Made by a program: the position numbers and the translations under genes. A stretch of 64,000 nucleotides of DNA from Escherichia phage vB_EcoP_PAS59, in sequence record OQ921332.1, one strand, 5' to 3'. The first letter of the stretch is position 1; each line of letters begins with the position of its first letter. Below are positions 1-18,792 of this stretch, piece by piece. The notes beneath the pieces are model-generated. The model was not told the origin of the DNA. It did not search any database and saw nothing but the letters and a program-made list of their open reading frames with translations.

Positions 1-21
1 GAAGAGAATGTTCTCGAAAAC

Positions 22-996
22 ATGATGCCTATGTCCGAAATCAAGTACATCTGGAACTCTGGTACACACCTTCCCGCTTATGGTGTAAAACGTTATGGCG
101 ATAAAGAGCCTATTACCACTCAGTATTTCCGCGAAGGGTTGGAGAATGGAGACCCTCGTCCTCCGTCTCATGTAGAAACATGGGCAGAAGAAAACAACCG
201 TCCTGATATTACTGATCGCGCTGTAATGGAAACCTTTGAAGCATTCATGGATAAAGACCTCGATTCATGTCTGGTGTGGCATGAAGCAGGATTCATGGGT
301 GTTTGTACTGATGGTTGTCCTGCTGATCGCGCTCTGTTCTATCTGATGCTGAATCGCACATTCTATACAGATGATGAAAAATCTGCTGTGTATGAAATGT
401 TGAACAAGATGTATAAGAAGGGCTGGTCTCCTTTAGCCTCTCTTGCATTCAGCCGACTGATCAACTCTTCAGTGGATGTGTTCGGTAACGAACGTGTTGC
501 TTTAACAGGGAATGATTACGATTCCTGTATCTTCCAAGCATCTCTGTATACAGTGGGTGTTGGCAGTACAATGGTTGAACCTCGCCAGACCAAGTGGCGA
601 CAGTGTGAATACACCGAAGGTGAAGGGCATCTTCGTGATGAAGACTTCCCCAGTCTGCTCTACCGTAGTGAAGGTGTGCGAGACTGTCGAGTGAATAACT
701 CAATGTTCTTACCAATCCTTCTTCCTCAGTATTGCAATCTGCCGAATGGTGAACGTCCGGTCATCACAGAGAAGTCACTCTTGGTTGAATTTATCCGAGA
801 AGTAGCTGAATCTGAAACATCTTTTGATAAAATTGTGTTCGGTTATAACTGGAACAATGAAACAGCTTCAGCTCGAAGCTACAACACGTATAACATTATC
901 AGTAGTATGTCCAATGGACTGACAGGTAGTAATTATACAGTACGTCCCTCAGAAGAGTGGGAAAACATTTTGGAAAAATTATTCTTCAATAAATAG
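22..996 (+). CDS. hypothetical protein; frame is open to position 1, so the 5' end may lie outside the window
   Basis: Long ORF, no recognisable motif; no in-frame stop upstream of the first ATG. Confidence 0.45.
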   Translation: MMPMSEIKYIWNSGTHLPAYGVKRYGDKEPITTQYFREGLENGDPRPPSHVETWAEENNRPDITDRAVMETFEAFMDKDLDSCLVWHEAGFMGVCTDGCPADRALFYLMLNRTFYTDDEKSAVYEMLNKMYKKGWSPLASLAFSRLINSSVDVFGNERVALTGNDYDSCIFQASLYTVGVGSTMVEPRQTKWRQCEYTEGEGHLRDEDFPSLLYRSEGVRDCRVNNSMFLPILLPQYCNLPNGERPVITEKSLLVEFIREVAESETSFDKIVFGYNWNNETASARSYNTYNIISSMSNGLTGSNYTVRPSEEWENILEKLFFNK

Positions 997-1004
997 AGGC
1001 GAAT

Positions 1005-1955
1005 ATGTCAATCTCCGCATCGATTGCTCCGGTAACACCGGCAGAGGATTTCGGTGAGTCAGTGTTTAAAGGAAGGGCTTGCTTTGGTACTTTTAACTGT
1101 ATGCACATGTACTCTGTTACAGACATTAATGGCGACAGTCTTAGACAAACAAACCTTCGTGATAGAACTTCAGAAATTGAAGTTATTAACTTCTGGCCTC
1201 ACAATTTTTATGGCGTACCGTCTAAAGATATCGAAAGAGCTTTAGTTGAAGCAACAGACATTTTTAACTCAATGTCTTGCTATAAAGATATGTTCTCTGT
1301 CACTTCGGTGAACTCTATTGCCGTGAACCTTCGAAACCATCCAGCAGACAAGGTGTTTACTGGACTAATGACCATCCGTAGCTATTTGGATGGTGATTTT
1401 AATGGAATGGAGTTCCTTCAGGAAGGCGTACAAGACAAGGAAGAGTTGCTTAAGCGACAACGAATCGGTTTAGCTCTACGCCTAGCTGGTTTAAGTCGTA
1501 ACTTCTTTGGTCGCTGGTGTTATAGTAATGACGTAGACTCAACTGATGAGTCAGCAGCGACTTATTTTGATGGTGACATGAGTGCAATTGCATTTCTGCC
1601 ACTAATTTGCACCACTGATGAATTTTCTGAAAACGTATGGGTTCAGAATGTGTTCGGTGTTGATGATAACCGAGATGGTTATGTACGAAACCATAATGAT
1701 GGAGTTCTCCGTCGTATGGCACGTCGTCGTGACCAAGACCCTGACCATTATGAGAGTATGAGTGAGTGGTTGCGTCTCTGGTCAACTTGTGCAGGTCACA
1801 AGCGAGAAGTATTAGATCAGCGTATGGACAGAATTACTGTTCGCAGTTTTATTGAACGTCTGATGCAAGCAGTACCTTCCTCAATGACACCAGAAGAAGC
1901 TGGTGCCCGTGTTGTTTCCCTTTTTGATGAACTCGTGGAGTATTACAATGACTAA
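1005..1955 (+). CDS. hypothetical protein
   Basis: Long ORF packed between neighbours; no recognisable motif. Confidence 0.45.
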   Translation: MSISASIAPVTPAEDFGESVFKGRACFGTFNCMHMYSVTDINGDSLRQTNLRDRTSEIEVINFWPHNFYGVPSKDIERALVEATDIFNSMSCYKDMFSVTSVNSIAVNLRNHPADKVFTGLMTIRSYLDGDFNGMEFLQEGVQDKEELLKRQRIGLALRLAGLSRNFFGRWCYSNDVDSTDESAATYFDGDMSAIAFLPLICTTDEFSENVWVQNVFGVDDNRDGYVRNHNDGVLRRMARRRDQDPDHYESMSEWLRLWSTCAGHKREVLDQRMDRITVRSFIERLMQAVPSSMTPEEAGARVVSLFDELVEYYND

Positions 1956-2754
1956 GCGCGCTTTCCTTATTGGCTCTGACCCTGAAATGTTTGTTCGTAC
2001 TGCTTCCGGTATTATCACCTCTGTGGCTGGTAAGCTGGGCTGTTCTAAAGATAATAAAATTGATCTGGCTCCTGATGTTCGTCTTCAAGAAGACAACGTT
2101 CTGGCTGAATTCGATATTAACCCACAGAAAGGGTTTGAAGCGTTTGATGATAATATTCAGCGTGGTATTGATCTGACTAACAAAGTTCTCAATGAACGTG
2201 GCATGGAGGCAGCACTTGGGATTAGCTCTCATGTGTTCACTTCAGAAGAACTTGAATCATTCCACCCGTCAGCTTTTGTATTTGGCTGTACTCCTGATTT
2301 CAATGCCTTCACTGGACAAAAGAACCCTTCACCAGTCGCAACCGATAAGGGTTTGCGTACTGCTGGGGGTCATGTGCACCTTGGTGTCTCCGGGACTTTA
2401 GAGATTACTCGACAAACTCAAATGATGTTGGGTGTGTTATGTGATTACTTCCTGTCCTTGCCAGCTGTGATCATGGATAAAGACACTCGTCGTAAAGAGT
2501 TGTACGGAAAGGCTTCTGCCATTCGCTACAAAGATTACGGTATTGAATATCGTTCTCTTTCTAACTTCTGGATTGGTGATAAGTCCACTCGCAAGTTTGT
2601 TTACGAGCAAGTGGATAAGGTTGTTCAGGGTTGTGATATGGAAGTGTTGATGTCACTTCACTCTCGCCTTCCAATTGAAAAGCTTCATAACATCATCAAC
2701 AGCAACGATGTTAAAGAAGCGGATAAATTCTCCTCTAAACTCCAGATTGTATAA
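1948..2754 (+). CDS. GCS2/YbdK-like carboxylate-amine ligase (amidoligase)
   Basis: Start ATG at 1948 overlaps upstream stop (ATGACTAA); 'FLIGSDPEMFV' and 'GGHVHLGV' resemble the G-x-E-x-E strand and GxHVHvG motif of YbdK-type ligases. Confidence 0.5.
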   Translation: MTKRAFLIGSDPEMFVRTASGIITSVAGKLGCSKDNKIDLAPDVRLQEDNVLAEFDINPQKGFEAFDDNIQRGIDLTNKVLNERGMEAALGISSHVFTSEELESFHPSAFVFGCTPDFNAFTGQKNPSPVATDKGLRTAGGHVHLGVSGTLEITRQTQMMLGVLCDYFLSLPAVIMDKDTRRKELYGKASAIRYKDYGIEYRSLSNFWIGDKSTRKFVYEQVDKVVQGCDMEVLMSLHSRLPIEKLHNIINSNDVKEADKFSSKLQIV

Positions 2755-2763
2755 GGTGATATT

Positions 2764-3390
2764 GTGAGCTTGTTAAGAGATTTTCAACACTATTATTGTG
2801 GAACATGGATTGCTCAGCGATCACCTGATGGTAAAAACCTCCCTCTATATGTGCTTGATGTTCGTCAGCAAGGTAACTTTGATATCGACGACTACTCACA
2901 CGACGCTGAAAGGTCTTTAGTGTTTGAGGCGGAACGCTGGACTAAAAACTCTGAAGGTCAGTTTGAACGTCAGATTGTTAGTAATATCCCAGTGTTTGAT
3001 CACAGCCTCATTCTAGAGTCTCCAGATGTAGGATACCTTCAGCATGGTAATAACATGGTGAGCTGGACCCATATCAACCCTGTTCGTCAGCGAGCTAAAG
3101 GCTTGATGGGGAATAAACTTCGTGGTGCTGCACCTTCTCTCGGACGTTCGATTCCGGGTGATTTGGTGTACAACTTGTTTAATCCAGAGTTTGAAGGGTT
3201 GGTTACTCGTTTCATCTATATCAACCCTGTCGATGGAAAAGTGTATTACAAAGGGGCTTACGTTGGAAACGTGCTTCTTGAAGCTGGCTATGGCGACAAC
3301 GGTCGCCAATCTTTAAACCTTCTGGAGAAGTTCAAGCACATTTCTTCAGACCTGTCATCATATAATGTAGAGTTGGTGGAATCACTATGA
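2764..3390 (+). CDS. hypothetical protein (GTG start)
   Basis: ORF embedded in the amidoligase island; no motif recognised. Confidence 0.4.
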   Translation: MSLLRDFQHYYCGTWIAQRSPDGKNLPLYVLDVRQQGNFDIDDYSHDAERSLVFEAERWTKNSEGQFERQIVSNIPVFDHSLILESPDVGYLQHGNNMVSWTHINPVRQRAKGLMGNKLRGAAPSLGRSIPGDLVYNLFNPEFEGLVTRFIYINPVDGKVYYKGAYVGNVLLEAGYGDNGRQSLNLLEKFKHISSDLSSYNVELVESL

Positions 3391-4487
3391 CAACCGTAGC
3401 ACAAGTTTTTGGATACCGTAACCCTCGCTTATCTGAACCGCATCCAAGCATTGCTTTTCAGTGTGGTGTTGGTATTGAGTTAGAAGTCGAAGGTACTACT
3501 GACATTGACGTTGATATGTGGGTTTGTACTGAAGACGGCTCTCTTCGTGATGGTTGTGAGTTAGTGTGTTCACGACCTTACAACGGTGAAGAATTACTTC
3601 GTGCTATTAACAATCTGAGTGAAGCAGTACAGGATTCTGGAGCCGAGGGGACTTGGCGCTGCTCCACTCACGTTCATATGGATATGCGGGACGCTGATAG
3701 TAATATCCTTAAGAAAGTTATTCTTGGGTGGACGTTCTATGAAAAGATGATGTTCAAATGTTCTGGATATCATCGTTACCGTAGTAACTTCTGCCCAGCT
3801 TTTGCTGTTGTTCAAGCTCAAGTTATGAATGCTTCATCAGCGTTCAACCGAGATGGGGAAGATTTCTTCCGTACTCTTGTTAATAGCTGGGACAAGTATA
3901 CCTCCCTTAACCTGTTGCCTCTATCTCAGTTTGGTTCTGTTGAGTTTCGTATTTCAGAGCCGAAGTGGAAAAAGAGTCAGCTGCTAAATCTGGTCAATCG
4001 CTTCTTGGTTCTCAAGAAACTGGCTGTTGAATATGCAGATTTAGATAATGAAGCTTATGTTGAGAAGTTGAATGAGCTGCGCTTCGCTCCTATGATTCAA
4101 CATCTACCTCTAGACTATACTCCAAGAGATAGCGATCTCACTGAAGGGTATCGTCTTGCCCGTGATATTCTGTTCTGTCGTGAGCAATCTGTAACTTTGG
4201 TTGGTCGTGTTCGTGTGCAACAGACTGGCCCTGATGGTGAAGTCCTTATCAACTTACGTGACATGAATGACTTCTATGGTTTCTTGGGATATGTGCGCGG
4301 TAATGCCAACACTGTCTATGAAGAGATCATGACCTACTACACCCCTCAGATTGAAAGCACTCGAATCGCAACGGTTCGTGAAATTCGTCACATGTTTGCA
4401 TTGATGCGTGAATCAGGTAGCAGTGATAATAACATCACTGATTACATTCCAGACCATCTGGAAATGCAATTAGAACGACTGCTGTAA
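3387..4487 (+). CDS. amidoligase-like protein (glutamine-synthetase-like fold)
   Basis: 'GVGIELEVEG', 'DGSLRDGCELV', 'STHVHMD' resemble the amidoligase/GCS2 superfamily. Confidence 0.5.
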   Translation: MTTVAQVFGYRNPRLSEPHPSIAFQCGVGIELEVEGTTDIDVDMWVCTEDGSLRDGCELVCSRPYNGEELLRAINNLSEAVQDSGAEGTWRCSTHVHMDMRDADSNILKKVILGWTFYEKMMFKCSGYHRYRSNFCPAFAVVQAQVMNASSAFNRDGEDFFRTLVNSWDKYTSLNLLPLSQFGSVEFRISEPKWKKSQLLNLVNRFLVLKKLAVEYADLDNEAYVEKLNELRFAPMIQHLPLDYTPRDSDLTEGYRLARDILFCREQSVTLVGRVRVQQTGPDGEVLINLRDMNDFYGFLGYVRGNANTVYEEIMTYYTPQIESTRIATVREIRHMFALMRESGSSDNNITDYIPDHLEMQLERLL

Positions 4488-4564
4488 CACAATGGGCGCT
4501 CTGATAAAGGGCGCATTTAAAGGTTAATTAGATGAAAGGGTTTACCCTTCAGGTGGATTAGAAA

Positions 4565-6598
4565 ATTTGTGGTATCGTATTAGCTGGCGGCAACATGACC
4601 TCAACAGATTTGGATATTTTCAACCAACTTCTGTATGCTGGTGTTTTCCGTGGACAGCACTCAACTGGTGTGTTTGGTCAGCGTAAAGGTGAAAAGCAAG
4701 TCTTCTCTTATAAAGAAGCTCTTCCTTCTTATGCTTTTATGCTCCAGACAGAATATACAAATATTACCAAAGGGCTTACGAACTACGTAGTTCCTCCTTC
4801 GTGGATTGTTGGTCACAGCCGACATGCCACTCGTGGGGCTGTCAATGCTCGAAATGCTCACCCATTTACTCACGGGGATATTACTCTGGTTCATAATGGA
4901 ACCCTGTTAGATCAAGATCTCCTTCCTGACAGTAAGCGTTTCGAAGTTGATAGTGAAAACATCTGCCACTCAATTAATACCATTGGAGCAGCAGAGACTA
5001 TCCAAAAACTGGATGGTGCATTCACTTTGATTTGGCATGATGCTAAAGACAACACGCTTCACATTATCCGTAATGATGAGCGTCCTTTCCACCTAGCCCG
5101 TTGTGGTTTAGATTGGTTTGGGGCTTCTGAAGAAGCTATGCTTATGTGGATTTTAGAGCGTTCTAAATCCCACAAGAACCGTATCAATGACCACTTCGAA
5201 TGTAAAGTGGGAACTGAGTATATCTTTGATGTGTCTAACAGTCGTATGACTCTGGTTCAAGAGGTGGAGCACAAGCTTCCGGTTTTTACGATAACGAGTC
5301 GCTGGGGCGGCTATTACTCGAACTCCTCTCTATATCAGAACCGACAGACAAACAAATCAAGCAGCAGCACAAGCGACATTTACGGAAACAAAGACGACAA
5401 GCCCGGCGTGACAAGCGGAGACATTCGTCGTCGTAAAGCGATTGAAGACCAGAACAAACTGGCTGCCGATCGTGGTCTTCCTTATCGTCGTGATGGTCGT
5501 GTGGATATTATTCCTCACGAGTTCCATGCTTATAACAACACAGATCGTGGTAAGATGGTTGGTTACATCTACGACGATAAAGCCCAAGAGTATGTCGAAG
5601 GGGATGTTCACAACGTAGCCAAAGATGAATATCTTAAGGCTCTTGAAAACCCAAAGGTAGTATATCGCGGGACGATTGCTTGTATCTCCGAAGTGGACAG
5701 TATGATTCGCCTCGTACTAACTTCAGGGCTGTTTGTTGATGCTACAGATAAGGAGCCTCAAAGCACTACTGCTGATTTTGATGATGATATCCCTTTTGAT
5801 GCAGAGGACTCCTTCATCACTAAAAATGGTGTAGAAGTCACTCGTAAGTTCTGGGAATCTCACTCTCATGGAGATTGTGGTGGCTGTGATAAGCACATTG
5901 ACTGGAAAGATGCTCGTAAGGCTGTGTTTGCTTACCAAGCGTACTGGCATCCAGAATGCTTCGAAGCGTTGTCTAAAACCTCTGAAGAGGAAGAAGACGT
6001 ACCTTTGGGTGTATGTGCTGTCTGTGGTGAAGTCAAGACTGATTTCGAGTTTGACAACGAAATGAGTAAACTTCGTGGTGAAGATATTTGTTATATCTGC
6101 TCCAAAGAAATCAAAGATAAAGTAAAAAATGTTACTCTGTCTGAAGGTTATATTTGGACTAAAGCAGTAGACACAACTAATCCGCGTCGTCCTGAAGTGG
6201 CTGTTCGTGTTGATGAACGTATGCTTAGCCGTATGATTGTAATGGTCAGCTCAGCAAAACGTTCAGGGGATATTACACTCGCAGATGTTCCTAACTCATA
6301 TTTGGAAAAACGTGGTGGCGATACTTATGCCATTTCCGTTTACGGTCCAAAGAATGCCCCAAAGGAGGTACCCGCTGAGAAAGCGGAGACATTTCCAGAA
6401 AAATCAACCTCTCTCCGAAAAACAGTTGTCAGTTATGACGGACAACGAACAGCTGAGTTCACAAAAGCCCTCTGGACTTCAATTGGGTTTTGTGCAGTCT
6501 GTTATAAACAAATTCCGTGGCGTGATGCAGAAACTTGCTCACTAAACAAAGAAAATAGAGTGATCTGTAATTCAGATTACTGTAAAGGTAAACACTAA
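4565..6598 (+). CDS. class-II (Ntn) glutamine amidotransferase domain protein with Cys-rich C-terminal region; predicted AUU start
   Basis: In-frame 'I-CGIVLAGG...RGQHSTGV...HPF...LVHNGTL' begins right after an in-frame TAG; AGGTGG 8 nt upstream of ATT at 4565; C-terminal CxxC clusters. Confidence 0.6.
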   Translation: MCGIVLAGGNMTSTDLDIFNQLLYAGVFRGQHSTGVFGQRKGEKQVFSYKEALPSYAFMLQTEYTNITKGLTNYVVPPSWIVGHSRHATRGAVNARNAHPFTHGDITLVHNGTLLDQDLLPDSKRFEVDSENICHSINTIGAAETIQKLDGAFTLIWHDAKDNTLHIIRNDERPFHLARCGLDWFGASEEAMLMWILERSKSHKNRINDHFECKVGTEYIFDVSNSRMTLVQEVEHKLPVFTITSRWGGYYSNSSLYQNRQTNKSSSSTSDIYGNKDDKPGVTSGDIRRRKAIEDQNKLAADRGLPYRRDGRVDIIPHEFHAYNNTDRGKMVGYIYDDKAQEYVEGDVHNVAKDEYLKALENPKVVYRGTIACISEVDSMIRLVLTSGLFVDATDKEPQSTTADFDDDIPFDAEDSFITKNGVEVTRKFWESHSHGDCGGCDKHIDWKDARKAVFAYQAYWHPECFEALSKTSEEEEDVPLGVCAVCGEVKTDFEFDNEMSKLRGEDICYICSKEIKDKVKNVTLSEGYIWTKAVDTTNPRRPEVAVRVDERMLSRMIVMVSSAKRSGDITLADVPNSYLEKRGGDTYAISVYGPKNAPKEVPAEKAETFPEKSTSLRKTVVSYDGQRTAEFTKALWTSIGFCAVCYKQIPWRDAETCSLNKENRVICNSDYCKGKH

Positions 6599-6609
6599 GA
6601 GGTATAGTT

Positions 6610-6843
6610 ATGGAAGTTCGTAAACTGATGTTGGATAACGTGGTAACTACCCGTCGTATTCCGATGACAAGCACAGGATGTGATAACCTCCGAGCAATTC
6701 AGAAGTGGATGCAAGAAGGTATTGGGAAGCTGGTTGACTCTCCAGTAGAAATCCCTTTTCCAACCGTTATCAATAACGTGTTGGCTGACTATGTTAAAAT
6801 GAAGGGGATTAAAGTTGAGCCTCATGTCAAGCAAGGGAGCTAA
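6610..6843 (+). CDS. hypothetical small protein
   Basis: ORF only. Confidence 0.3.
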   Translation: MEVRKLMLDNVVTTRRIPMTSTGCDNLRAIQKWMQEGIGKLVDSPVEIPFPTVINNVLADYVKMKGIKVEPHVKQGS

Positions 6844-7045
6844 GCCTCACCTGACAATGCTGGAGTATCAACAACTCCGACTTCAACAACTGGTAACGGA
6901 GCAGCGAAAGCTGTATCCGTTTGCTTTTAACTTAATCGACTCTCCAAGTGATGCCCAAGAAGACGAAATGTTCGCCGAGTATTGGGCAATCGAAGCTAAA
7001 ATTCAATCCTGTCGTAACGAAATTCTTAAACTAAAAGGTATCTAA
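6815..7045 (+). CDS. hypothetical small protein (start uncertain)
   Basis: ORF only; overlaps the previous ORF. Confidence 0.3.
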   Translation: MSLMSSKGAKPHLTMLEYQQLRLQQLVTEQRKLYPFAFNLIDSPSDAQEDEMFAEYWAIEAKIQSCRNEILKLKGI

Positions 7046-7047
7046 AA

Positions 7048-8295
7048 ATGACTACTCGTATCCGTGTTCTTCCGTATGGCCCGTCTGATTCTGTTAACGC
7101 TCTGGTATCTGCTATCAGTGATACTATCCGTGATGAACGTATCAACGCTAACATAATGGGTCTTCTTTCAGAGAACAGTCGCTGGCGTTCTCGTGAGGAT
7201 GATGTGGTTGTGAACTACGGGAACCGTCGCTATCCTGAATCCTTCTTTGGTTCTGCAACTGTCCTTAACCGTACCGCAGCCTTACATATGGCAGCGAACA
7301 AACGTCGTGCTTTCAGCGTGATGGACCAAGCAGGTGTTAAAACTGTTGAGTATACAGATGTTCAAGAGATTGCTCAGGAGTGGTCAAACTCTGGCAACAT
7401 TGTGTATGAACGTCATGAACTGACTGGTCACTCTGGTTCGGGTATCGTTGTTGTTGAGCCTCGTGATTCAATTGGTCAAGCTGAACTGTACACCAAAGGT
7501 ATTCAAGGTCCACGTCGTGAATGGCGTGTCCATGTGTTCAAAGGTGTTATCACCTATGTTCAGAAGAAGATTCGTCGTAACGGCTATCGTGAAGACCCTA
7601 ACTATCGTGAAGATGTTCGTAACCATCACACTGGTTGGGTTTACTCAAGTTCCTTCACAGACGCTCCAAATGATGCATCTCTGATCAACGCAGTGAAGGC
7701 CGTTGAATCGATGGGTCTGGATTTTGGTGCAGTTGATATCATTACCAAAGGCCGAGAAGCATGGGTACTGGAAGTTAACACAGCACCGGGCCTGACTGGT
7801 ACAACTCTGGATATCTACCGTCACAACATCCTTGAGTTTGTTAAAGCTCAAAATCCTCTCTATACTCCTCAGTATAAAGTGGGTTACCAGACTCCTGTTG
7901 AAGCTCCAATCGAAGACGGAGATGGAGAGTTGGTAGATGACAGCGAAAGCGCTAATGATGAAAACTTTGCACTGGAAGGTCAGGTAGCACAGCCGGTTGA
8001 GTTGGTAGATGTAGTTCCTGAAGAGATGCAACTGGAAGGTCAGATGAATACTCAAACTATTCGTAATGCACCTACTGGTTACACTTTATCTCGTGGTTAT
8101 TGGATTGCAGATATCCGTCATGTCCATAACAACCTGCAACCGAATGCAATGTCTTCCAATGTCATTTTGTTCTGTGATGGTCGTAACTTCTACCGTAGTG
8201 GCTGGAACGTTCCGGTCAATCCAGTCCAGATTCATAACCCTCGCAAGTTAGAATCTGTCAATGTTGAAGGTAGCGAAGTAGCAGTAACTCTGTAA
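7048..8295 (+). CDS. ATP-grasp family ligase
   Basis: 'EWRVHVFKG...LDFGAVDIITKGREAWVLEVNTAPGL' matches the ATP-grasp C-terminal signature. Confidence 0.65.
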   Translation: MTTRIRVLPYGPSDSVNALVSAISDTIRDERINANIMGLLSENSRWRSREDDVVVNYGNRRYPESFFGSATVLNRTAALHMAANKRRAFSVMDQAGVKTVEYTDVQEIAQEWSNSGNIVYERHELTGHSGSGIVVVEPRDSIGQAELYTKGIQGPRREWRVHVFKGVITYVQKKIRRNGYREDPNYREDVRNHHTGWVYSSSFTDAPNDASLINAVKAVESMGLDFGAVDIITKGREAWVLEVNTAPGLTGTTLDIYRHNILEFVKAQNPLYTPQYKVGYQTPVEAPIEDGDGELVDDSESANDENFALEGQVAQPVELVDVVPEEMQLEGQMNTQTIRNAPTGYTLSRGYWIADIRHVHNNLQPNAMSSNVILFCDGRNFYRSGWNVPVNPVQIHNPRKLESVNVEGSEVAVTL

Positions 8296-8321
8296 TTAAA
8301 TTAAACAAAAAGGAATTTGTA

Positions 8322-8564
8322 ATGTTGTCTATCGAAGATTTGATCAGCCGTGGAATGACCGAAGAAAAAGAGCCTCTGATTGTAGGCTCTCGTAAAGCTA
8401 TCAACCAACTCTGTGAAGAGTTCGGTATCACAAATAAGAGAATGATTGGTAATCAGTTCTCTGCAATCATCACCTTCCTCAAACGAGGTGATAAATATTC
8501 AATGGAAAGTGCTGAGCGTATCATCGCAATTGCACAAGCAGATAAGGGAGTAACAAGTCTGTGA
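8322..8564 (+). CDS. hypothetical protein
   Basis: ORF only. Confidence 0.35.
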   Translation: MLSIEDLISRGMTEEKEPLIVGSRKAINQLCEEFGITNKRMIGNQFSAIITFLKRGDKYSMESAERIIAIAQADKGVTSL

Positions 8565-8746
8565 ATAAATATACAATCATGTTTCGTACAGTAACATCAG
8601 AAGGGAATATTCAATCTCTGGATATTCAAGCAGACCGCTTTGAATCACTTGGAACAAATGTCAATTTCTTCCGAGGCGCAGAGCTAGTAGGTACGTTCCA
8701 ATCTGATGTATTAACTGGTGTGATCAAACACTTCGAAGTAGAATAA
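8561..8746 (+). CDS. hypothetical protein
   Basis: ORF overlapping upstream stop. Confidence 0.3.
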   Translation: MNKYTIMFRTVTSEGNIQSLDIQADRFESLGTNVNFFRGAELVGTFQSDVLTGVIKHFEVE

Positions 8747-8812
8747 TTTGCTTTAGCCTCTTCGAAAGAGGAGGCTAGTTCGAATTTAACTGAAACACTA
8801 AAAGGTAATATA

Positions 8813-9244
8813 ATGTCTGATAAAGTACTAGTTGCAACTTACGGAAGCTTGAGAAAAGGTCAACACAACCACGCTATCAATGCTCGTGCAGGTGGTGTGT
8901 CTATTGGTGAAGGGTGGACAGTAAACAACTGTAACCTGTATCAGTATTGCACAGCATACTTCCCAAGTGTATCTTTGGAGCATGACAGCAATGGTAAGCC
9001 TGTTCGTGTAGAAGTCTTTGAAACAACCCAAGCTGGTCTGGAAGGTCCGTATGACGGTCTGGAAGGTCATCGTGGTAATGATAACCCATACACCTTTTAT
9101 AAGCGTACACTGATTCCAGTATTATTGGACAGCGGTGAAACTGTGGAAGCGTGGATTTATCACATCGACGAAGAACAAGATGTTCTGGTTGAATCGGGTG
9201 ACTGGACAGCATATCTGGCAGGTGAGAAGGATGACAGTAACTGA
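8813..9244 (+). CDS. gamma-glutamyl cyclotransferase / AIG2-like protein
   Basis: N-terminal 'VATYGSLRKG' (YGSL motif typical of the GGCT/AIG2 fold), about 140 aa. Confidence 0.5.
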   Translation: MSDKVLVATYGSLRKGQHNHAINARAGGVSIGEGWTVNNCNLYQYCTAYFPSVSLEHDSNGKPVRVEVFETTQAGLEGPYDGLEGHRGNDNPYTFYKRTLIPVLLDSGETVEAWIYHIDEEQDVLVESGDWTAYLAGEKDDSN

Positions 9245-9437
9245 CAGGCAGAAGTTAAGAAAGCTTGAATCTGACTACTTAAAGATGCGGTGGAAGATTA
9301 ATCGCTATGAAAAGTTTGTCAGTATGCTCACACCTGATAAGCACTCTGAAGAGTTTATTCACAGAACAAAGCAAACCTTGCAGGGTTTTCGAAACTTGCA
9401 AGATGACGTGTGGGAAGAAATACGATCGTTTTATTAA
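9230..9437 (+). CDS. hypothetical small protein
   Basis: ATG at 9230 preceded by GAGAAGG; overlaps the end of the upstream gene. Confidence 0.35.
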
Positions 9438-9472
9438 GAAGATTGCTCAAGGAATTCCAAGGAGGATAGAGC

Positions 9473-11263
9473 ATGTCAAAGATCATTTTGGGAGACACAG
9501 GCTGTAAAGAGTGCATCTCTCATGGTCGTGATAAGACCCATAATCACATGATTCTCTTCCGAAATGAAGAGTCCGGTGAGGAGTGGGGTTCATGTAACAG
9601 ATGTGGTGCGTATGAAATCTTCGAGAAAGGAACGACGCCCACTCCTAATGAAAAGAAAGAGCTGTCCCCTGAAGAACTTCGAGAAGTCTTAGACGATTGC
9701 TTAGAGCTTCCTCAGGGAGAGTTGACTCGTCGCTTAATCCCTAAAGCTGTGTCTGAACGCTATGGATGCCGTATTGGTTTAAGTCAAACAGACGGTCAAA
9801 CTCCTGACAGCTACTTCTTCCCTCGTGAACGTGATGGGAATATTGTTGGATATGAAGTAAAACTTCTAGACAGCAAGAAATTCTATTATGTAGGTAATGT
9901 GAAAGAAGCCGACTTATTTGGTATGGCTCAAGCACAACGTGGTGACGTATACAACAAGAAACTCTTCATCTTTGAAGATCCTCTCTCTTGTATGTCTGGG
10001 TTCCACGTACTTACCGCGTTTACAAACGCAACTAACATCAAACCTGCTTGCGTCTCTCTTCCGTTCGGTGCAGGTTCAATCTCTTCTGTCTTATCAAGAA
10101 ACCGTGATTTTATTAATGGTTTCGAGGAGATTGTACTCTGCATGGACAATGATGATGCAGGTGAGATTGCTTTAACTAAGGGTCGTTCTCTGTACCCGCA
10201 TGTTAAGTTTTCAAGGATTCCAAAAGGTACGTTCACTTATAACGGACAAGAAAAGGAAATCAAAGATGCAAACGACATGTTACTGGCAGGGAGAGGTCAA
10301 GAGCTTTTCAATAATCTTAAGTATTCAGCTAAGCGGGAATCTCCTGCTGGAGCTGTTACAGTTTTTGATTGCCTCGAAGATGCTCTGAAGAAAGCGGAAT
10401 GGGGTATTCCTTATCCGTGGAAAACTCTTAACGACATGACCTTTGGTATTCGTTGGGGAGAGATGGTTGCAATCGGCGGTGGTGTTGGTTCAGGTAAAAC
10501 CTTAATCGCACACGAACTGGTAGCATGGCTTTGCCTTGAGCATGGTTTTAATGGTGGTGGCTTCTTCTTGGAAGAGAAGGTAGGCATGTCTGTTAAGAAC
10601 ATTGCTGGTAAGTCTGCATCTGTTCCATTTCACCGACCAGATGTTGAGTATGAAGAAAGCCAGCTACGAGATGAAGCACTTCGATACGCTGATAAGTTTT
10701 TCTTATACGACAACTTTGGACAGAATGAGTGGGAAGACATTAAGCAGTGTATTCGCTTTTGGGTAGTTGAGAATCAATGTAAGTTTATCATCCTTGATAA
10801 CATCACTGCATTGGTATCTCACTTAACTCCATCCGAAGTGAATACAGAAATCAGTAAGATTGCTTCAGAGCTTGCTGGTATGTGTAAGGAATTAGACTTC
10901 ACTGCTTTTGTGTTATCTCACTTGAATGCTCCGGCGGGCGGTGCCCCTCACGAAGAAGGTGGTCAGGTTAAAGAAGTACAGTTTACTGGCTCACGTTCAT
11001 TAATGCGCTGGTGTCAATGTATTATCGGTTTCGAACGTAATAAACAAGCGGATGGGTTAGGTAAAAACTTGTCAATCATACGTCTGCTCAAAGAGCGTAA
11101 CTATGGACAGACGGGGGTTTGCTATACCAAATATATTAACGAAACAGGTCGTCTTGTAGAACGAGAAGATCATGAAGTTGATGAAGATAATCCGTTTACA
11201 GTCACCAACGGAGAAGATGCAGCTTCCTTACTCTCACAAGAAGGGGAGGCGCGTCCGTGGTAA
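9473..11263 (+). CDS. DNA primase/helicase (T7 gp4-like)
   Basis: N-terminal Cys4 zinc ribbon (CKEC...CNRCG), DnaB-type Walker A 'GGGVGSGKT'; AGGAGG before ATG. Confidence 0.85.
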
Positions 11264-11807: not shown

Positions 11808-13280
11808 ATGATTAAGATTCCATTATCTGAATTGAACCTTCAAGAAGGAGAAGCCCTCAGTGTAGGGCTTGACCTGATTCGTAATTTGATCAGAGATAAC
11901 GTAGTCCCTGATGGCATCTATCCTGTTATTGCAGGTGGTGCTATCCGTGATACGTTCTTTCAAAATAGAACTCCGAATGATGTTGATATCTTCCTAGTTC
12001 AAGGAGGATTACGTTGGAACGCTCGTCAGGAAAATAGCCCTGCTAACGTAGGTAATGCTGCACTTTTCCTTGACAACTTCTTATCTTGGACAGAAAGTAA
12101 AGGGCTTCAGGTTACATCTCGACTAATTCAGCCTGTTAACGGGACAACCTATGCTGAAGCGCTTTTCACTTTCCAAGAGATTCTGGAAATCGAGATTGAT
12201 CAAGTTAAAATCCAGATGATGATTAATCTACCTTTGGATATGGATACTTTAAGCCGTCGCTTCCCTATGATCTGTCAAGGGTTTATGACTCTTGGTAATC
12301 TGTATGTGTCAAACGAAGGTTTGTTTGCAATGTCATACACTCGTGACATTCCTGTGGTGTCCAGTCGTGAAATGAAGTATGTTCACAAGAAGTGGCCTGA
12401 AGCAACTGTTGCAGTTTATAGCAGTTCTACCGAATATATGCACCTTGCAATGGGAGCTTTCGGTGAGCCAGAAGTTCACCTGATTAGTGATTTAGTTGGA
12501 CCTATGGCTGGTGTAAATTTATATCAGAATCAGCGTCGTCATTATACCCTGAAGATGATGGAAACTACATTAAACATTCCTCAGGAAAGGGGTCGTAGTT
12601 ATCTGGACGAGGAAGTTAACCTACAGACAGAATGGTCTAGTGGATTAACCACTATAGGTGCTGAAGCAATTACACGACCTTGGACTCCGGGAACTAACAG
12701 ACGAGATCTTCAAGCTTTTAATGAAGAAACTTCTCGAACTGTTCGAGGAGGTGTTGTAGGGTATAACGTACAACCTCATGAAAGACCTCGTGATACTTTC
12801 ACTGGTAGTTTTGGTAGTGCACACTCTTCTGGAATGGATACTCGTACATGGCATGTCCAAGGAGGAACTGCTCGTCCTATTCCCTCTCCGTCAATGGATG
12901 ATTTGCAGCGTTCTCGTCGTTCATGGGAAACAGTAAGCTCTGTTGTTCAGGGTCTACGTGCTAGTGATATTGAACGTGTAGAAGTTGGTGATTTGCCAAC
13001 CTCTACAGAAGATCGAGTATCAGCTATAGCGGCTCGTGAAGCTGCTCATATTGGTTTTGCATCATTAGCTAATGACGCTAACGAAGCTCCTCGACCTGTT
13101 GGTCGTCGTAATGGTCTAGCTCACTCTGACACTGCACTTGGTGCAGAACTACGAGCAGCAGCTCGTGAGCTATCTGGTGAGCTTCACAACAACCTGGCAG
13201 GTGTTACACTATCTCGTGAAACAGCTCGTAATATGATTAATAATTTGGCATCATCTGTACAAGGAAACAGAAACTCATGA
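11808..13280 (+). CDS. nucleotidyltransferase-like protein (Pol-beta superfamily head motif) with low-complexity C-terminal half
   Basis: 'IAGGAIRDTFFQNRTPNDVDIF' matches the GGxVRD...DxD motif of CCA-adding/poly(A) polymerase heads. Confidence 0.4.
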   Translation: MIKIPLSELNLQEGEALSVGLDLIRNLIRDNVVPDGIYPVIAGGAIRDTFFQNRTPNDVDIFLVQGGLRWNARQENSPANVGNAALFLDNFLSWTESKGLQVTSRLIQPVNGTTYAEALFTFQEILEIEIDQVKIQMMINLPLDMDTLSRRFPMICQGFMTLGNLYVSNEGLFAMSYTRDIPVVSSREMKYVHKKWPEATVAVYSSSTEYMHLAMGAFGEPEVHLISDLVGPMAGVNLYQNQRRHYTLKMMETTLNIPQERGRSYLDEEVNLQTEWSSGLTTIGAEAITRPWTPGTNRRDLQAFNEETSRTVRGGVVGYNVQPHERPRDTFTGSFGSAHSSGMDTRTWHVQGGTARPIPSPSMDDLQRSRRSWETVSSVVQGLRASDIERVEVGDLPTSTEDRVSAIAAREAAHIGFASLANDANEAPRPVGRRNGLAHSDTALGAELRAAARELSGELHNNLAGVTLSRETARNMINNLASSVQGNRNS

Positions 13281-13810
13281 GTCTTTTAGGTTCTCAAGAA
13301 TTACACAGCGTTATTGATAATGGCTTTTTAGATGCGGAGCATAAATATGTTAACGCTGCTAGTGTGGATATCCGTATTGGTGATACTATCCTTGTTGAAG
13401 AGCAGGCTGATGGTATTGTTGACATTGATGCTAAAGAAAACCTCAAGTGGAAAGAAGTAAAAATCCCTGAAGATGGTATCGTTATCACTCCGGGACAGTT
13501 CTTCTTAGCTCACTCAATGGAAGAGTTTAACCTTCCAGACAATATTTCAAGTCTGTTTGTACTCCGCTCCTCAATGGCTCGTTGTGGTTTAAACCATCTC
13601 CATGCTGGTTGGGCTGATGCAGGGTTTAATAACAGTAAGCTGACCTTTGAGTTCCATAACGTTACTCACAATCACAGCTTACGAGTTCGTGCTGGGATGC
13701 GTGTCGGTCAAATGGTTATGTTTGAACACTCTCACGCTGGTGATGATTCCTATGCAGTGAAGGGTCGTTATAACAACTCCGATGGGGTTGTTGCTTCTAA
13801 AGGTGTATAA
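13277..13810 (+). CDS. dcd: dCTP deaminase (dUTPase superfamily)
   Basis: 'ASVDIRIGD', 'ITPGQFFLAHSMEEFNLP', 'LRSSMARCGL', 'WADAGFNNSKLTFEFHN' track the Dcd signature. Confidence 0.7.
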   Translation: MSLLGSQELHSVIDNGFLDAEHKYVNAASVDIRIGDTILVEEQADGIVDIDAKENLKWKEVKIPEDGIVITPGQFFLAHSMEEFNLPDNISSLFVLRSSMARCGLNHLHAGWADAGFNNSKLTFEFHNVTHNHSLRVRAGMRVGQMVMFEHSHAGDDSYAVKGRYNNSDGVVASKGV

Positions 13811-16110: not shown

Positions 16111-16602
16111 ATGAATAATATTGACCCGTCAATAAAAGAAGCTCTTGATTACGACCCTTTGACTGGAGATTTCCGATGGGTTAAAACTTATGGAAAAGGA
16201 CACAAAGGGTCTATAGCTGGTTCTGTAAATACCAATGGGTATTTGAGAATCGTTTATAAAGGTGCTAGATACTACGCTCATCGACTTGCTTACTGGTGGG
16301 ACACTGGATTGCTTCCTGAAGAAGTAGATCACATAGACCGCAACAGGATAAACAACAAAAGAGAGAATCTTAGGGGGACTACTAGATCAGGAAATGGCCT
16401 AAACAAAGTAGCTCAGAGTAATAATTTATCAACCGGAGTGATTGGAGTGACTGTCCATAGAAGGAAAAGTGGCTCTATTGCTTACCGGGCGGTATTTAAA
16501 TCTAAGCACATAGGACTCTTCTCAACCATAGAAGAAGCCTCTAGGGAATATAATAAAGTCAAGGAGACTTACATAAATGACAATCAAAGCTTCATTAATT
16601 GA
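16111..16602 (+). CDS. HNH homing endonuclease with AP2-like DNA-binding domain
   Basis: 'LDYDPLTGDFRW...AHRLAYWW...DHIDRNRINNKRENLR' plus 'GVIGVTVHRRKSGSIAYRA'. Confidence 0.7.
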   Translation: MNNIDPSIKEALDYDPLTGDFRWVKTYGKGHKGSIAGSVNTNGYLRIVYKGARYYAHRLAYWWDTGLLPEEVDHIDRNRINNKRENLRGTTRSGNGLNKVAQSNNLSTGVIGVTVHRRKSGSIAYRAVFKSKHIGLFSTIEEASREYNKVKETYINDNQSFIN

Positions 16603-17224
16603 TAACTTCGGTTCAGATCTTACAGTAGTCAATGCTGCTCGTGTAACTATGGGGGTAGAAAGGGAAGAATTAAAAGAAAGTGACACTCGTCTAATAAATT
16701 TTCTAGCTCGGGAACGGCACGTAAGTCCTTTTCGTCACCCACAAGCGAGCTTCAGATGCGAAGCTCCTATAGCAATTGCACGACAGTTACAGAAGCATCA
16801 AGTTGGTTTTTCTTGGAACGAGATGAGTCGTAGATATAAAGATGGAGCAGTGGATATTTTCATACCTAAAGAAATCTTCTCCCGTCCAGATGATCTACAT
16901 TCTGGTTCTGGAATACTTCTTGAAGGGGAGGAAGAGGCAAAAGCTTTAGCTTTGTTTAACTCTGCGTACGAGGCATCTCTTGCTAGTTATGACGAATTGA
17001 TTAAGTTCGTAGCTCCTGAACAAGCTAGATTTGTTTTACCTCAAGGTATGGTAACTACTTGGTACTGGACTGGTAGCTTGTATGGCTGGTTTGAATTGTG
17101 TCGTCAACGACTATCATCCCATGCTCAATATGAAGTTCGACTATTTGCTCAGTCATTAGATGAAGAGATGGCTAAACTCTATCCAATCTCATGGGCAGCT
17201 TTGAAGAAAACTTTGGAGAGTTAA
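16577..17224 (+). CDS. thyX: ThyX-family (flavin-dependent thymidylate synthase-like) protein with variant signature
   Basis: 'HVSPFRH...ARQLQKHQVGFSWNEMSRRY' parallels ThyX 'SPFEH...RHR-x7-S..RY', but RHR is replaced by KHQ. Confidence 0.55.
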   Translation: MTIKASLIDNFGSDLTVVNAARVTMGVEREELKESDTRLINFLARERHVSPFRHPQASFRCEAPIAIARQLQKHQVGFSWNEMSRRYKDGAVDIFIPKEIFSRPDDLHSGSGILLEGEEEAKALALFNSAYEASLASYDELIKFVAPEQARFVLPQGMVTTWYWTGSLYGWFELCRQRLSSHAQYEVRLFAQSLDEEMAKLYPISWAALKKTLES

Positions 17225-18054: not shown

Positions 18055-18792
18055 ATGAGTCGTAGAGAATCTCGGAAAGCATCACGGAGAGAATTACGTC
18101 GTGAAGCTCTCGTCACCAAGAAAGGAAAGCGGGAATTTGAAGAAGTAGTTCTTGCTAAGCCGGTAGTACCTCAGAACCAATTCCAGAGTGAGCTGCTTGA
18201 TGCAATTAAAACCAAACAGGTTGTATTCACAGATGCTCCTGCTGGCTGTGGTAAGACATTCGTAATCACTTCTACAGTGATCGATGCTCTGAAGAGTGGG
18301 AAGATTGAGAAGATTATCCTAAGCCGACCTGCTGTTGGTATGGGTAACAGTCTAGGATTACTTCCCGGTGGGCTTCGTGAGAAATTTGAACCATACCTGA
18401 TGCCAATTGTTGATGTTATCACTCAGCGTTATGGTAAAGGCTTCTATGAGTGTCAAATTGGTAATGGTAACATTGAGTTTGTACCTCTGGAATACCTCCG
18501 TGGCCGTTCATTCAACGATGCTATTGTGATTGTTGATGAGTTCCAGAATACCACTCCTGATGAAGCATATTCAATTATGACTCGTCTTGGTGAAACCTCT
18601 CAGATGTTCTGTATGGGGGACACCAATCAGCACGATATGCGTGGTGAGAGTGGTCTAGATTGGGCTACTGATTTCATATACCGTCACAAATTGTTTGAAT
18701 TTGCCGCTCTAGTAGATGGTGAATCGGATGATATTGTTCGTTCAGGTTTCTGTAAAGCTATTGTCAAAGCAATGGAATCTGAAAAATCATAA
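18055..18792 (+). CDS. phoH: PhoH-like ATPase
   Basis: Walker A 'DAPAGCGKTF', Walker B 'IVIVDEFQN', size typical of PhoH. Confidence 0.75.
   Translation: MSRRESRKASRRELRREALVTKKGKREFEEVVLAKPVVPQNQFQSELLDAIKTKQVVFTDAPAGCGKTFVITSTVIDALKSGKIEKIILSRPAVGMGNSLGLLPGGLREKFEPYLMPIVDVITQRYGKGFYECQIGNGNIEFVPLEYLRGRSFNDAIVIVDEFQNTTPDEAYSIMTRLGETSQMFCMGDTNQHDMRGESGLDWATDFIYRHKLFEFAALVDGESDDIVRSGFCKAIVKAMESEKS

Follow-up and report, generated by a model that had tools for sequence, protein, structure and literature searches.

What product do the clustered amide-bond enzymes of Escherichia phage vB_EcoP_PAS59 make, and do their genes form a single system? The stretch analysed here (sequence record OQ921332.1; 64,000 nucleotides, hereafter the window) belongs to Suseptimavirus (Gordonclarkvirinae), a group of phiEco32-like podophages of Escherichia coli. 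A megablast search with its bases 1-10000 matched 98 phage records, nearly all from Escherichia or Shigella, with Escherichia phage EK010 as the top match (97% identity, 100% query cover). Early and replication genes lie on the plus strand, and structural genes on the minus strand beyond ~32 kb. A preliminary description, made from the letters alone, had singled out five co-directional open reading frames (ORFs) with the hallmark motifs of amide-bond enzyme families, and read them as a toolkit to make, aminate and trim gamma-glutamyl-type linkages. All five occur on the plus strand, with every coordinate and motif that it quoted, and the families and intact catalytic residues described below support its interpretation. 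Our comparisons show that the block is inherited as a unit, consisting of five enzymes with conserved catalytic residues together with an adaptor-like protein, ORF C:

1948..2754, plus strand: Lig1, predicted phiEco32-type COOH-NH2 ligase (GCS/GS-like carboxylate-amine ligase; PF14395, phrog_3815)
2764..3390, plus strand: ORF C, core non-enzymatic component, whose stop overlaps the Lig2 start (ATGA)
3387..4487, plus strand: Lig2, predicted Amidoligase_2 (GCS/GS-like carboxylate-amine ligase; PF12224, phrog_7469)
4565..6598, plus strand: class-II (Ntn, PurF-type) glutamine amidotransferase, putatively ATT-initiated (GATase_6, phrog_4736)
7048..8295, plus strand: RimK/MptN-like ATP-grasp ligase (phrog_2599, 2e-170)
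8813..9244, plus strand: GGACT/AIG2-type gamma-glutamyl cyclotransferase (GGCT; PF06094, phrog_2520)

The RefSeq labels of EK010 for this island are COOH.NH2 ligase, putative amidoligase enzyme, aminotransferase, putative ATP-grasp enzyme and gamma-glutamyl cyclotransferase.

Conservation of the cassette among virulent phages

A tblastn search with the amidotransferase retrieved 320 phage records, mostly from Pseudomonas (121) and Escherichia (93), followed by Vibrio, Aeromonas, Proteus, Salmonella, Cronobacter, Pseudoalteromonas and others. The same block is located just upstream of the primase/helicase genes in ES17, Proteus 3H10_20, RIO-1, LUZ24, Aeromonas LAh_6, Vibrio Vp_R1, Pseudomonas Bjorn and Vibrio BA6. 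Family alignments were built from 88 related loci (53-91 homologues per family), 79 of which were added from IMG/VR by a scan with the Lig1 alignment, and components were counted with iterated hidden Markov models over all 88; dereplication at 80% Lig1 identity reduced these loci to 54 lineages. Lig1 is present in 88/88 loci by construction. Lig2 was likewise found in 88 loci (all 54 lineages), the amidotransferase in 87 (54 lineages), the ATP-grasp ligase in 82 (52 lineages), ORF C in 78 (48 lineages) and GGCT in 52, while the small protein DUF7195 and ORFs B and A, treated below, occur in 28, 14 and 9 loci. The gene order is near-invariant (Lig1, C, Lig2, GATase, optionally DUF7195, ATP-grasp, optionally GGCT), and the amidotransferase adjoins Lig2 in nearly all loci. 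Because this order repeats in 88 loci and 54 lineages, the arrangement is far beyond chance. Among 100,044 species genomes (one per species), Lig1 was detected in only eight metagenome-assembled genomes or short contigs, from which nothing informative about a bacterial operon context could be drawn. Therefore, the cassette belongs to virulent phages and not to bacteria or typical prophages.

The cassette is already known and annotated. Two computational studies described it: Iyer et al. (2009), cited in PMC10580990 and PMC7824862, and Hardies et al. (2013), for which PMC5498523 and PMC10580990 give summaries. It is called the "peptidoglycan modification cassette" in PMC5498523, where it is listed in RIO-1, phiEco32, 7-11, PA11, tf, MR299-2, LUZ24, PaP3 and CW02, and its published proposed role is a cell-wall modification that blocks superinfection (PMC5498523; PMC10580990). 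The cassette of the window is this same phiEco32/LUZ24/RIO-1 "amidoligase - GATase - ATP-grasp - AIG2" system, with no difference in kind: it is directly syntenic with LUZ24 gp16-22, RIO-1 and the Privateer-like phages, and PF14395 is itself named after phiEco32. As the preliminary description had stated, the association was noted computationally and has no characterised product; we found neither an experimental test nor a product in the searchable literature. Our analysis adds ORF C as a core member, a B-like family, the alternation of GGCT with Peptidase_C26 within phages, the ATT start and the truncation of public gene models. The cassette takes up ~10-16% of the genome in widespread virulent phages (Kuravirus, Suseptimavirus, LUZ24-like Bruynoghevirus, Privateer-like phages and many marine podophages), and some cassette-bearing phages are used in phage therapy. 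Seventeen years after the computational description, its product is a well-defined problem that is now directly testable.

The two carboxylate-amine ligases

Profile searches matched each of the five ORFs to the family proposed for it, the ATP-grasp protein just under the Pfam cutoff (see below); PHROG matches of the island ORFs ranged from 1e-41 to 1e-183, and the catalytic residues are intact and conserved across the 88 loci. Lig1 matches PF14395 ("Phage phiEco32-like COOH.NH2 ligase-type 2"; 34.1 bits, cutoff 25, E 2e-8) and phrog_3815 (1e-112). Its D11, E13, E54, H142, H144, R193, E200 and R202 are invariant in 89/89 sequences, so that it carries the acidic N-terminal strand, HxH and ExR, i.e. 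the metal/phosphate ligands of GCS/GS-type ligases. Lig2 matches PF12224 (Amidoligase_2; 35.8 bits, cutoff 22, E 1e-8) and phrog_7469 (6e-142), and E31, E33, E35, E58, H95, H97, R130, E186 and R188, which include its ExExE, HxH and ExR motifs, are kept in at least 89 of 91 sequences.

The resemblance to YbdK/GCS2-type ligases noted in the preliminary description stands at the level of motifs and Pfam families and does not extend beyond it. In hhalign comparisons with E. coli YbdK, HVH of Lig1 paired with GQHVHVG of YbdK and GSVEFR of Lig2 with GTVEVR; only the HVH and ExR motifs were aligned, and the profile-profile relation was not significant either between Lig1 and Lig2 or between each of them and YbdK. 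The same comparison gave no significant relation of ORF A, ORF B or the LUZ24 gp15-like family to Lig1 or Lig2. No solved structure homologous to the two ligases was detectable by sequence or profile search, and the GS-like fold predicted for them is taken from Pfam and from the classification of Iyer et al. (2009). Pfam scans of the long C-terminal extensions found in other phages, in variants of Lig2, ORF C, the amidotransferase and the ATP-grasp ligase, yielded zero domains.

The amidotransferase and its putative ATT start

The amidotransferase matches GATase_6 (53.7 bits, cutoff 27, E 2.7e-14) and phrog_4736 (1e-183), the latter alignment beginning at residue 2. An Ntn domain (~residues 1-200) is followed by a middle part without a recognised domain and by a C-terminal part with Zn-ribbon-like Cys clusters. 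In the Ntn domain, C2, R29, G30, H84, R86, N111, G112 and D129 are kept in at least 87 of 88 sequences, the Cys in all 88 and R86, N111, G112 and D129 in 87/87. In class-II amidotransferases, the Cys acts as the nucleophile, an Arg binds glutamine, Asn-Gly forms the oxyanion hole and an Asp binds the alpha-amino group. The nearest NCBIfam relatives of this domain are GlmS, PurF and AsnB, all far under the equivalog cutoffs, and Pfam and NCBIfam scans recovered no SIS or synthase domain. The common public name GlmS (L-glutamine:D-fructose-6-phosphate aminotransferase) was therefore rejected, the protein having no SIS domain and scoring 33.7 bits against a TIGR01135 cutoff of 418. The C-terminal third contains three CxxC...CxxC/HxxC clusters, as had been read from the sequence. 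Beyond ~residue 200, however, the protein is not conserved across the family (372 to 846 residues in total length, 0 to 6 CxxC pairs), and the Zn-ribbon-like part is, as judged from these alignments, a lineage-specific addition.

The start at 4565 with an N-terminal Cys, already given in the preliminary description, proved right, and it is not a trivial call since the codon is ATT. The codon of the catalytic Cys at 4568 is preceded by ATT at 4565, AAA and a TAG stop at 4559-4561, with a Shine-Dalgarno-like aGGTGGa at 4551-4557, and upstream there is no ATG, GTG or TTG to serve as the start. The codon immediately ahead of the catalytic Cys is ATG in 76/88 homologues (M-C-G-[ILV]) and ATT in 11/88. 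Each of the latter has a Shine-Dalgarno-like site 7-10 nucleotides upstream and AAA immediately before the ATT; they comprise every Suseptimavirus and Kuravirus locus (Gordonclarkvirinae) and three unrelated metagenomic lineages. The predicted protein must thus initiate at AUU (ATT 4565), because of the position of the Cys, the ATG-Cys arrangement of the homologues, the lack of another upstream start and the PHROG alignment from residue 2. The N-terminal peptide predicted from this start is CGIVLAGGNMTSTDLDIFNQLLYAGVFR. In contrast, GenBank and RefSeq models begin at ATG 4595 or further downstream and lose the catalytic Cys, so that cloning the gene from current Gordonclarkvirinae annotations would yield a dead enzyme. 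The features of this start are:

4559..4570, plus strand: ATT start in the window (further ATT-start loci: L001, L002, L010-L013, L020, L029, L079, L087)
4497..4564, plus strand: conserved leader of the amidotransferase gene (hairpin 4497-4518, mini-ORF 4532-4561, hairpin 4536-4549, Shine-Dalgarno-like site 4551-4557)

Between Suseptimavirus and Kuravirus, the ~55 nucleotides ahead of the ATT do not differ at any position (100% identity), though the flanking coding sequence does. They contain an in-frame mini-ORF of nine codons (ATG 4532 to TAG 4561, MKGFTLQVD*) that ends 3 nucleotides before the ATT, and the hairpin at 4497-4518 shows compensatory changes; the predicted fold of the leader RNA is no more stable than that of shuffled sequence (z -0.73). 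This leader suggests a controlled, possibly coupled, low-level initiation, and it may be a regulatory or reinitiation element.

The ATP-grasp ligase and the gamma-glutamyl-removing enzymes

The ATP-grasp protein consists of a ligase part (~residues 1-270), an acidic linker and a variable C-terminal domain. Its score against Pfam RimK is just under the cutoff (20.8 bits, cutoff 21), and that of a Proteus-phage orthologue is 35.2. The best NCBIfam match is MptN (4e-9), followed by rimK_fam (6e-7), and among PDB sequences RimK (5zct) was matched at 1e-3. K85, E158, K174, D230, E242 and N244 are kept in all of the 82-83 sequences and correspond to the ATP-binding Lys/Glu and the Mg-binding D...E-x-N triad. 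Therefore, the RimK/LysX/MptN/CofF alpha-L-glutamate ligases are its best profile matches and their ATP/Mg ligands are kept, but the cassette protein scores 10 to 15 times under the equivalog cutoffs of this clade and has an extra variable C-terminal domain. RimK proper, the ribosomal protein S6 ligase, was rejected as its identity (NF007764, 24.2 bits against 331; rimK_fam, 29.2 against 143). On these profile scores, the public names "GlmS" and "S6 glutaminyl transferase" for cassette genes are unsupported.

GGCT matches PF06094 (GGACT; 59 bits, cutoff 22.8, E 9e-16) and has the YGSL motif and the catalytic Glu; Y10, G11, L13 and E84 are kept in 53/53 sequences. Clustering of the leftover neighbour ORFs revealed one family in 27 loci, 26 of them without GGCT. 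This family is Peptidase_C26 (Pfam 1e-16), a gamma-glutamyl hydrolase with a class-I GATase fold, and its gene is located just upstream of or inside the GGCT-less cassettes (e.g. at 5204-5896 in locus L009 and 6664-7305 in L058). Among the 54 lineages, GGCT is present in 27, Peptidase_C26 in 22, either of them in 48 and both in one. GGCT and Peptidase_C26 are thus mutually exclusive, interchangeable enzymes that are unrelated to each other. From this replacement it follows that the pathway contains a gamma-glutamyl linkage that is made and then removed. The Pfam entry for Amidoligase_2 reportedly mentions the same alternation in bacterial neighbourhoods; its occurrence within phages confirms a known theme and is not a discovery.

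In EK010 and several relatives, an HNH homing endonuclease gene is inserted just upstream of GGCT (L001, 11799-12335), and it is missing from the corresponding interval of the window (8747-8812). The region's best sigma-70-like promoter match, TTAACT-17-TATAAT at 8786-8814, coincides with this insertion spot; promoter and terminator scans were at chance level.

ORF C and the accessory proteins

The preliminary description had proposed that three ORFs without an assigned family may belong to the same system. This holds for ORF C (78/88 loci), partly for ORF B (39/88 when a linked family is counted) and weakly for ORF A (9/88). The remaining plus-strand features of the region are:

1..996 (given earlier as 22-996), plus strand: ORF A, the C-terminal 324 of ~405 residues, cut by the window edge (phrog_13063)
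1005..1955, plus strand: ORF B, 316 residues, with an 8-nucleotide overlap with the Lig1 start
6610..6843, plus strand: DUF7195, small basic protein, isoelectric point 9.3 (PF23825, 3e-19)
6815..7045, plus strand: small Gordonclarkvirinae-specific ORF of 76 residues (phrog_13464; 9/88 loci)
8322..8746, plus strand: two small ORFs (8322-8564 and 8561-8746), found in Gordonclarkvirinae loci only (9/88 and 7/88)

The overlap of ORF C with Lig2 is found in 7/8 annotated genomes. Its predicted structure shows SH3/Tudor-like (KOW/Tudor-like) barrels and a conserved basic loop, and none of its D, E, H or C residues is invariant. ORF C is a core member of the system, probably acting as an adaptor or subunit, and any reconstitution must include it. 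A LysW-like or Pup-like carrier or substrate was considered for both ORF C and DUF7195 and rejected: neither has a conserved C-terminal residue, and the loop of ORF C lacks an invariant Lys or Glu. RIO-1 (gene 10; L004, 6264-6700) has no separate ORF C, and its Lig1 has an N-terminal extension of ~130 residues without a Pfam match, which may substitute for ORF C.

ORF B is probably translationally coupled to Lig1, given their 8-nucleotide overlap. A family of 305-residue proteins, encoded immediately ahead of Lig1 in 25 marine loci, is linked to it by hhalign (89.5% probability, E 2e-6). With this family counted, ORF B is a frequent accessory. The family profiles of ORFs B and C found nothing among PDB sequences or Pfam. 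ORF A matches phrog_13063 (5e-157, profile positions 81-399), and the full gene of 405 residues is annotated in EK010; it is confined to Gordonclarkvirinae-like phages (4/54 lineages), has neither a Pfam nor a PADLOC match and shows only a weak hhalign relation to ORF B (46% probability, E 2e-4). It is a lineage-specific accessory. DUF7195 lies between the amidotransferase and ATP-grasp genes in 28/88 loci (16/54 lineages), and from its strand-helix-helix pattern we infer only a resemblance to ribbon-helix-helix proteins. The two small ORFs at 8322-8564 and 8561-8746 are probably outside the system. PADLOC defence models gave zero matches to ten proteins at E <= 0.01. The cassette proteins have no transmembrane segments; all of them are cytoplasmic.

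A possible pathway and its alternatives

From their conserved residues, three ATP-dependent carboxylate-amine ligases (two GCS-type and one RimK-like), an Ntn amidotransferase and a gamma-glutamyl-cleaving enzyme look active. Our favoured explanation, held as somewhat short of an even chance, is that they act together in the cytoplasm as a pathway of several enzymes. A gamma-glutamyl conjugate would be built, amidated and trimmed on a substrate whose gene lies outside the cassette, with a leaning towards a protein target. This grading is a compromise between those of its two parts: the general amide-bond chemistry appears likely, and a protein target, host or phage, rather than a universal small metabolite, is a tentative proposal. 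One GCS-type ligase would activate the gamma-carboxylate of glutamate as an acyl-phosphate and join it to an amine, and the other could convert a carboxylate to a carboxamide with ammonia freed from glutamine by the Ntn amidotransferase, which has no fused acceptor or synthase domain of its own. The RimK-like ATP-grasp enzyme might then extend a terminal carboxylate by one or several alpha-linked residues, with Glu as the likeliest amino acid, and GGACT (or Peptidase C26 in other lineages) would take off the gamma-glutamyl group as 5-oxoproline or Glu. The presence of a removal enzyme suggests that this group is a transient handle or protecting group, or that it is turned over. Recruitment of the target would fall to ORF C and to the C-terminal domains of the amidotransferase and the ATP-grasp ligase, which vary between lineages. 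The leaning towards a macromolecule, most likely a protein, comes from the presence of an adaptor and from the non-catalytic domains, which vary between host lineages while the catalytic cores stay conserved. In agreement with the preliminary description, no obvious substrate gene is found in the cassette.

Known systems offer several parallels. In the synthesis of glutathione and the gamma-glutamyl cycle, a gamma-glutamyl amide formed by a GCL/GS-type ligase is lengthened by an ATP-grasp enzyme, and its gamma-Glu is released as 5-oxoproline by a cyclotransferase. The cassette shares these three folds (GshA GCL fold, GshB ATP-grasp, GGCT/ChaC) in the same logical roles, but it also contains an adaptor, an Ntn amidotransferase and a further ligase of the GCS type, and has no significant similarity to GshA, GshB or YbdK beyond motifs. 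In the PuuA/PuuD (putrescine) and BtrJ/BtrG (butirosin) systems, an amine is gamma-glutamylated by a GS-like or ATP-grasp enzyme, and the Glu is taken off again at a later step, in the former by a Peptidase C26 (PuuD) and in the latter by an AIG2-type cyclotransferase (BtrG). Phage cassettes likewise carry one or the other type of removal enzyme. Unlike these pathways, they show no linked carrier protein, oxidase or decarboxylase and no further tailoring enzyme, and the parallel is one of established knowledge, not of sequence membership. The Pup ligase/depupylase pair (PafA/Dop) and other GS-fold protein-tagging enzymes also count among the closest known systems.

These parallels with GshA, GshB and GGCT and with PuuA and PuuD favour a second reading, in which the cassette makes or remodels a small metabolite or cofactor. 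Candidates are a gamma-Glu peptide that is glutathione-like or amidated, a gamma-glutamyl-polyamine and the glutamyl tail of a folate-like cofactor; gamma-glutamylation would have a carrier or protecting role, as it does in the Puu and butirosin pathways. The GGCT/C26 alternation, the best NCBIfam match of the ATP-grasp protein to a cofactor glutamate ligase (MptN) and the location of the cassette amid nucleotide-metabolism and replication genes agree with it. However, scores against every characterised small-molecule enzyme are far under family cutoffs, soluble metabolite pathways seldom include a non-enzymatic adaptor or Zn-ribbon or variable domains, and no transporter or dedicated downstream user is linked among the clustered neighbour ORFs; we regard a metabolite as doubtful. 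The role proposed by Iyer et al. (2009) and Hardies et al. (2013), according to PMC5498523 and PMC10580990, would have the ligases and amidotransferase alter UDP-MurNAc-L-Ala-gamma-D-Glu-meso-diaminopimelate stem peptides, by amidating D-isoglutamate or meso-diaminopimelate or by adding residues, for superinfection exclusion or lysis control. Gamma-glutamyl bonds and glutamine-dependent carboxylate amidation fit such precursors, the listed cultured hosts are all Proteobacteria with walls of the meso-diaminopimelate type, and the cytoplasm, where the cassette proteins are located, is the site of precursor synthesis. Nevertheless, no Mur-ligase-type, MurT/GatD-type, lipid II-related or membrane protein is present among the cassette proteins, a small universal substrate leaves the SH3/Tudor-like adaptor and the highly variable C-terminal domains unexplained, and removal of a gamma-glutamyl group at the gamma-D-Glu of the stem peptide would destroy it instead of modifying it. 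Experimental support was not found in the searchable literature, and we consider peptidoglycan-precursor modification unlikely.

The third alternative concerns restriction-modification (RM). The BASEL study reported a remarkable RM resistance of Gordonclarkvirinae, for which no modification pathway or inhibitor is known (PMC11990801). In the window, restriction sites are not depleted: observed counts against shuffle expectation are 14 vs 22 for EcoRI, 30 vs 15.6 for EcoRV, 7 vs 6.2 for EcoKI and 118 vs 120 for EcoP1, with EcoRV at ~2x expectation (0/100 shuffles reach 30). Site avoidance is thus ruled out and the reported resistance needs another cause. The attachment or processing of an amino-acid-derived group on phage DNA or RNA would provide one. 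Nucleic-acid binding could come from ORF C, with its basic loop and KOW/Tudor-like barrels, from the Zn ribbons and from the basic DUF7195, and the cassette always adjoins replication genes. However, when the island and ten ORFs at 11.8-28.6 kb, i.e. part of the window, were scanned with Pfam, none of the hallmark enzymes of hypermodification was recovered (ThyA-type hydroxymethylase, 5-hmdU DNA kinase, aGPT-Pplase, DpdA/TGT with preQ0 genes, glycosyltransferase). The phage ThyX and dCTP deaminase fit an ordinary supply of thymidine triphosphate, a carboxylate or amine acceptor on canonical DNA is not evident, many phage groups without documented restriction resistance also carry the cassette, and anti-restriction proteins explain the resistance equally well. 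Nucleic-acid hypermodification is very unlikely in our view. The broader idea that covalent modification of a macromolecule (an amino-acid adduct on phage DNA, or a glutamyl or amidated protein tag) causes the broad RM resistance of Gordonclarkvirinae despite undepleted sites is quite improbable. The BASEL phages Bas86-94 carry the cassette and plate on an E. coli K-12 derivative, and the RM resistance of the subfamily is unexplained. The probability left by protein, metabolite, peptidoglycan and nucleic acid falls to something else.

Several points weigh against the favoured gamma-glutamyl conjugation pathway with a protein target. Its product, substrate and phenotype are not known from the searchable literature, where we found no experimental paper, and the order of the steps and the pairing of ligase and amidotransferase are inferred from adjacency only. 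The ATP-grasp protein, just under the Pfam RimK cutoff and far under the NCBIfam equivalog cutoffs, does not allow its amino-acid specificity to be assigned from profile matches. ORF C lacks a conserved acceptor Lys or Glu and so is not obviously the substrate, and its adaptor role is a proposal. The variable C-terminal domains could serve complex assembly instead of target recognition, and the published peptidoglycan hypothesis (PMC5498523; PMC10580990) is compatible with the present data.

Neighbouring genes of nucleotide metabolism

The ten ORFs scanned at 11.8-28.6 kb include ThyX, dCTP deaminase, PhoH, Pol A, an HNH endonuclease and a metallophosphatase. A dCTP deaminase-like gene is located at 13277-13810, an HNH endonuclease ORF at 16111-16602 runs into the beginning of the neighbouring gene for ThyX (flavin-dependent thymidylate synthase; 16577-17224), and PhoH is encoded at 18055-18792. 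ThyX argues against the simple idea that these phages use deoxyuridine instead of thymidine. Between the exonuclease part of the DNA polymerase and the dCTP deaminase-like gene lies an ORF of 490 residues (11808-13280) without a Pfam or PADLOC match, labelled "nucleotidyltransferase" in relatives; the BASEL authors suggested this gene as a candidate DNA-modification gene.

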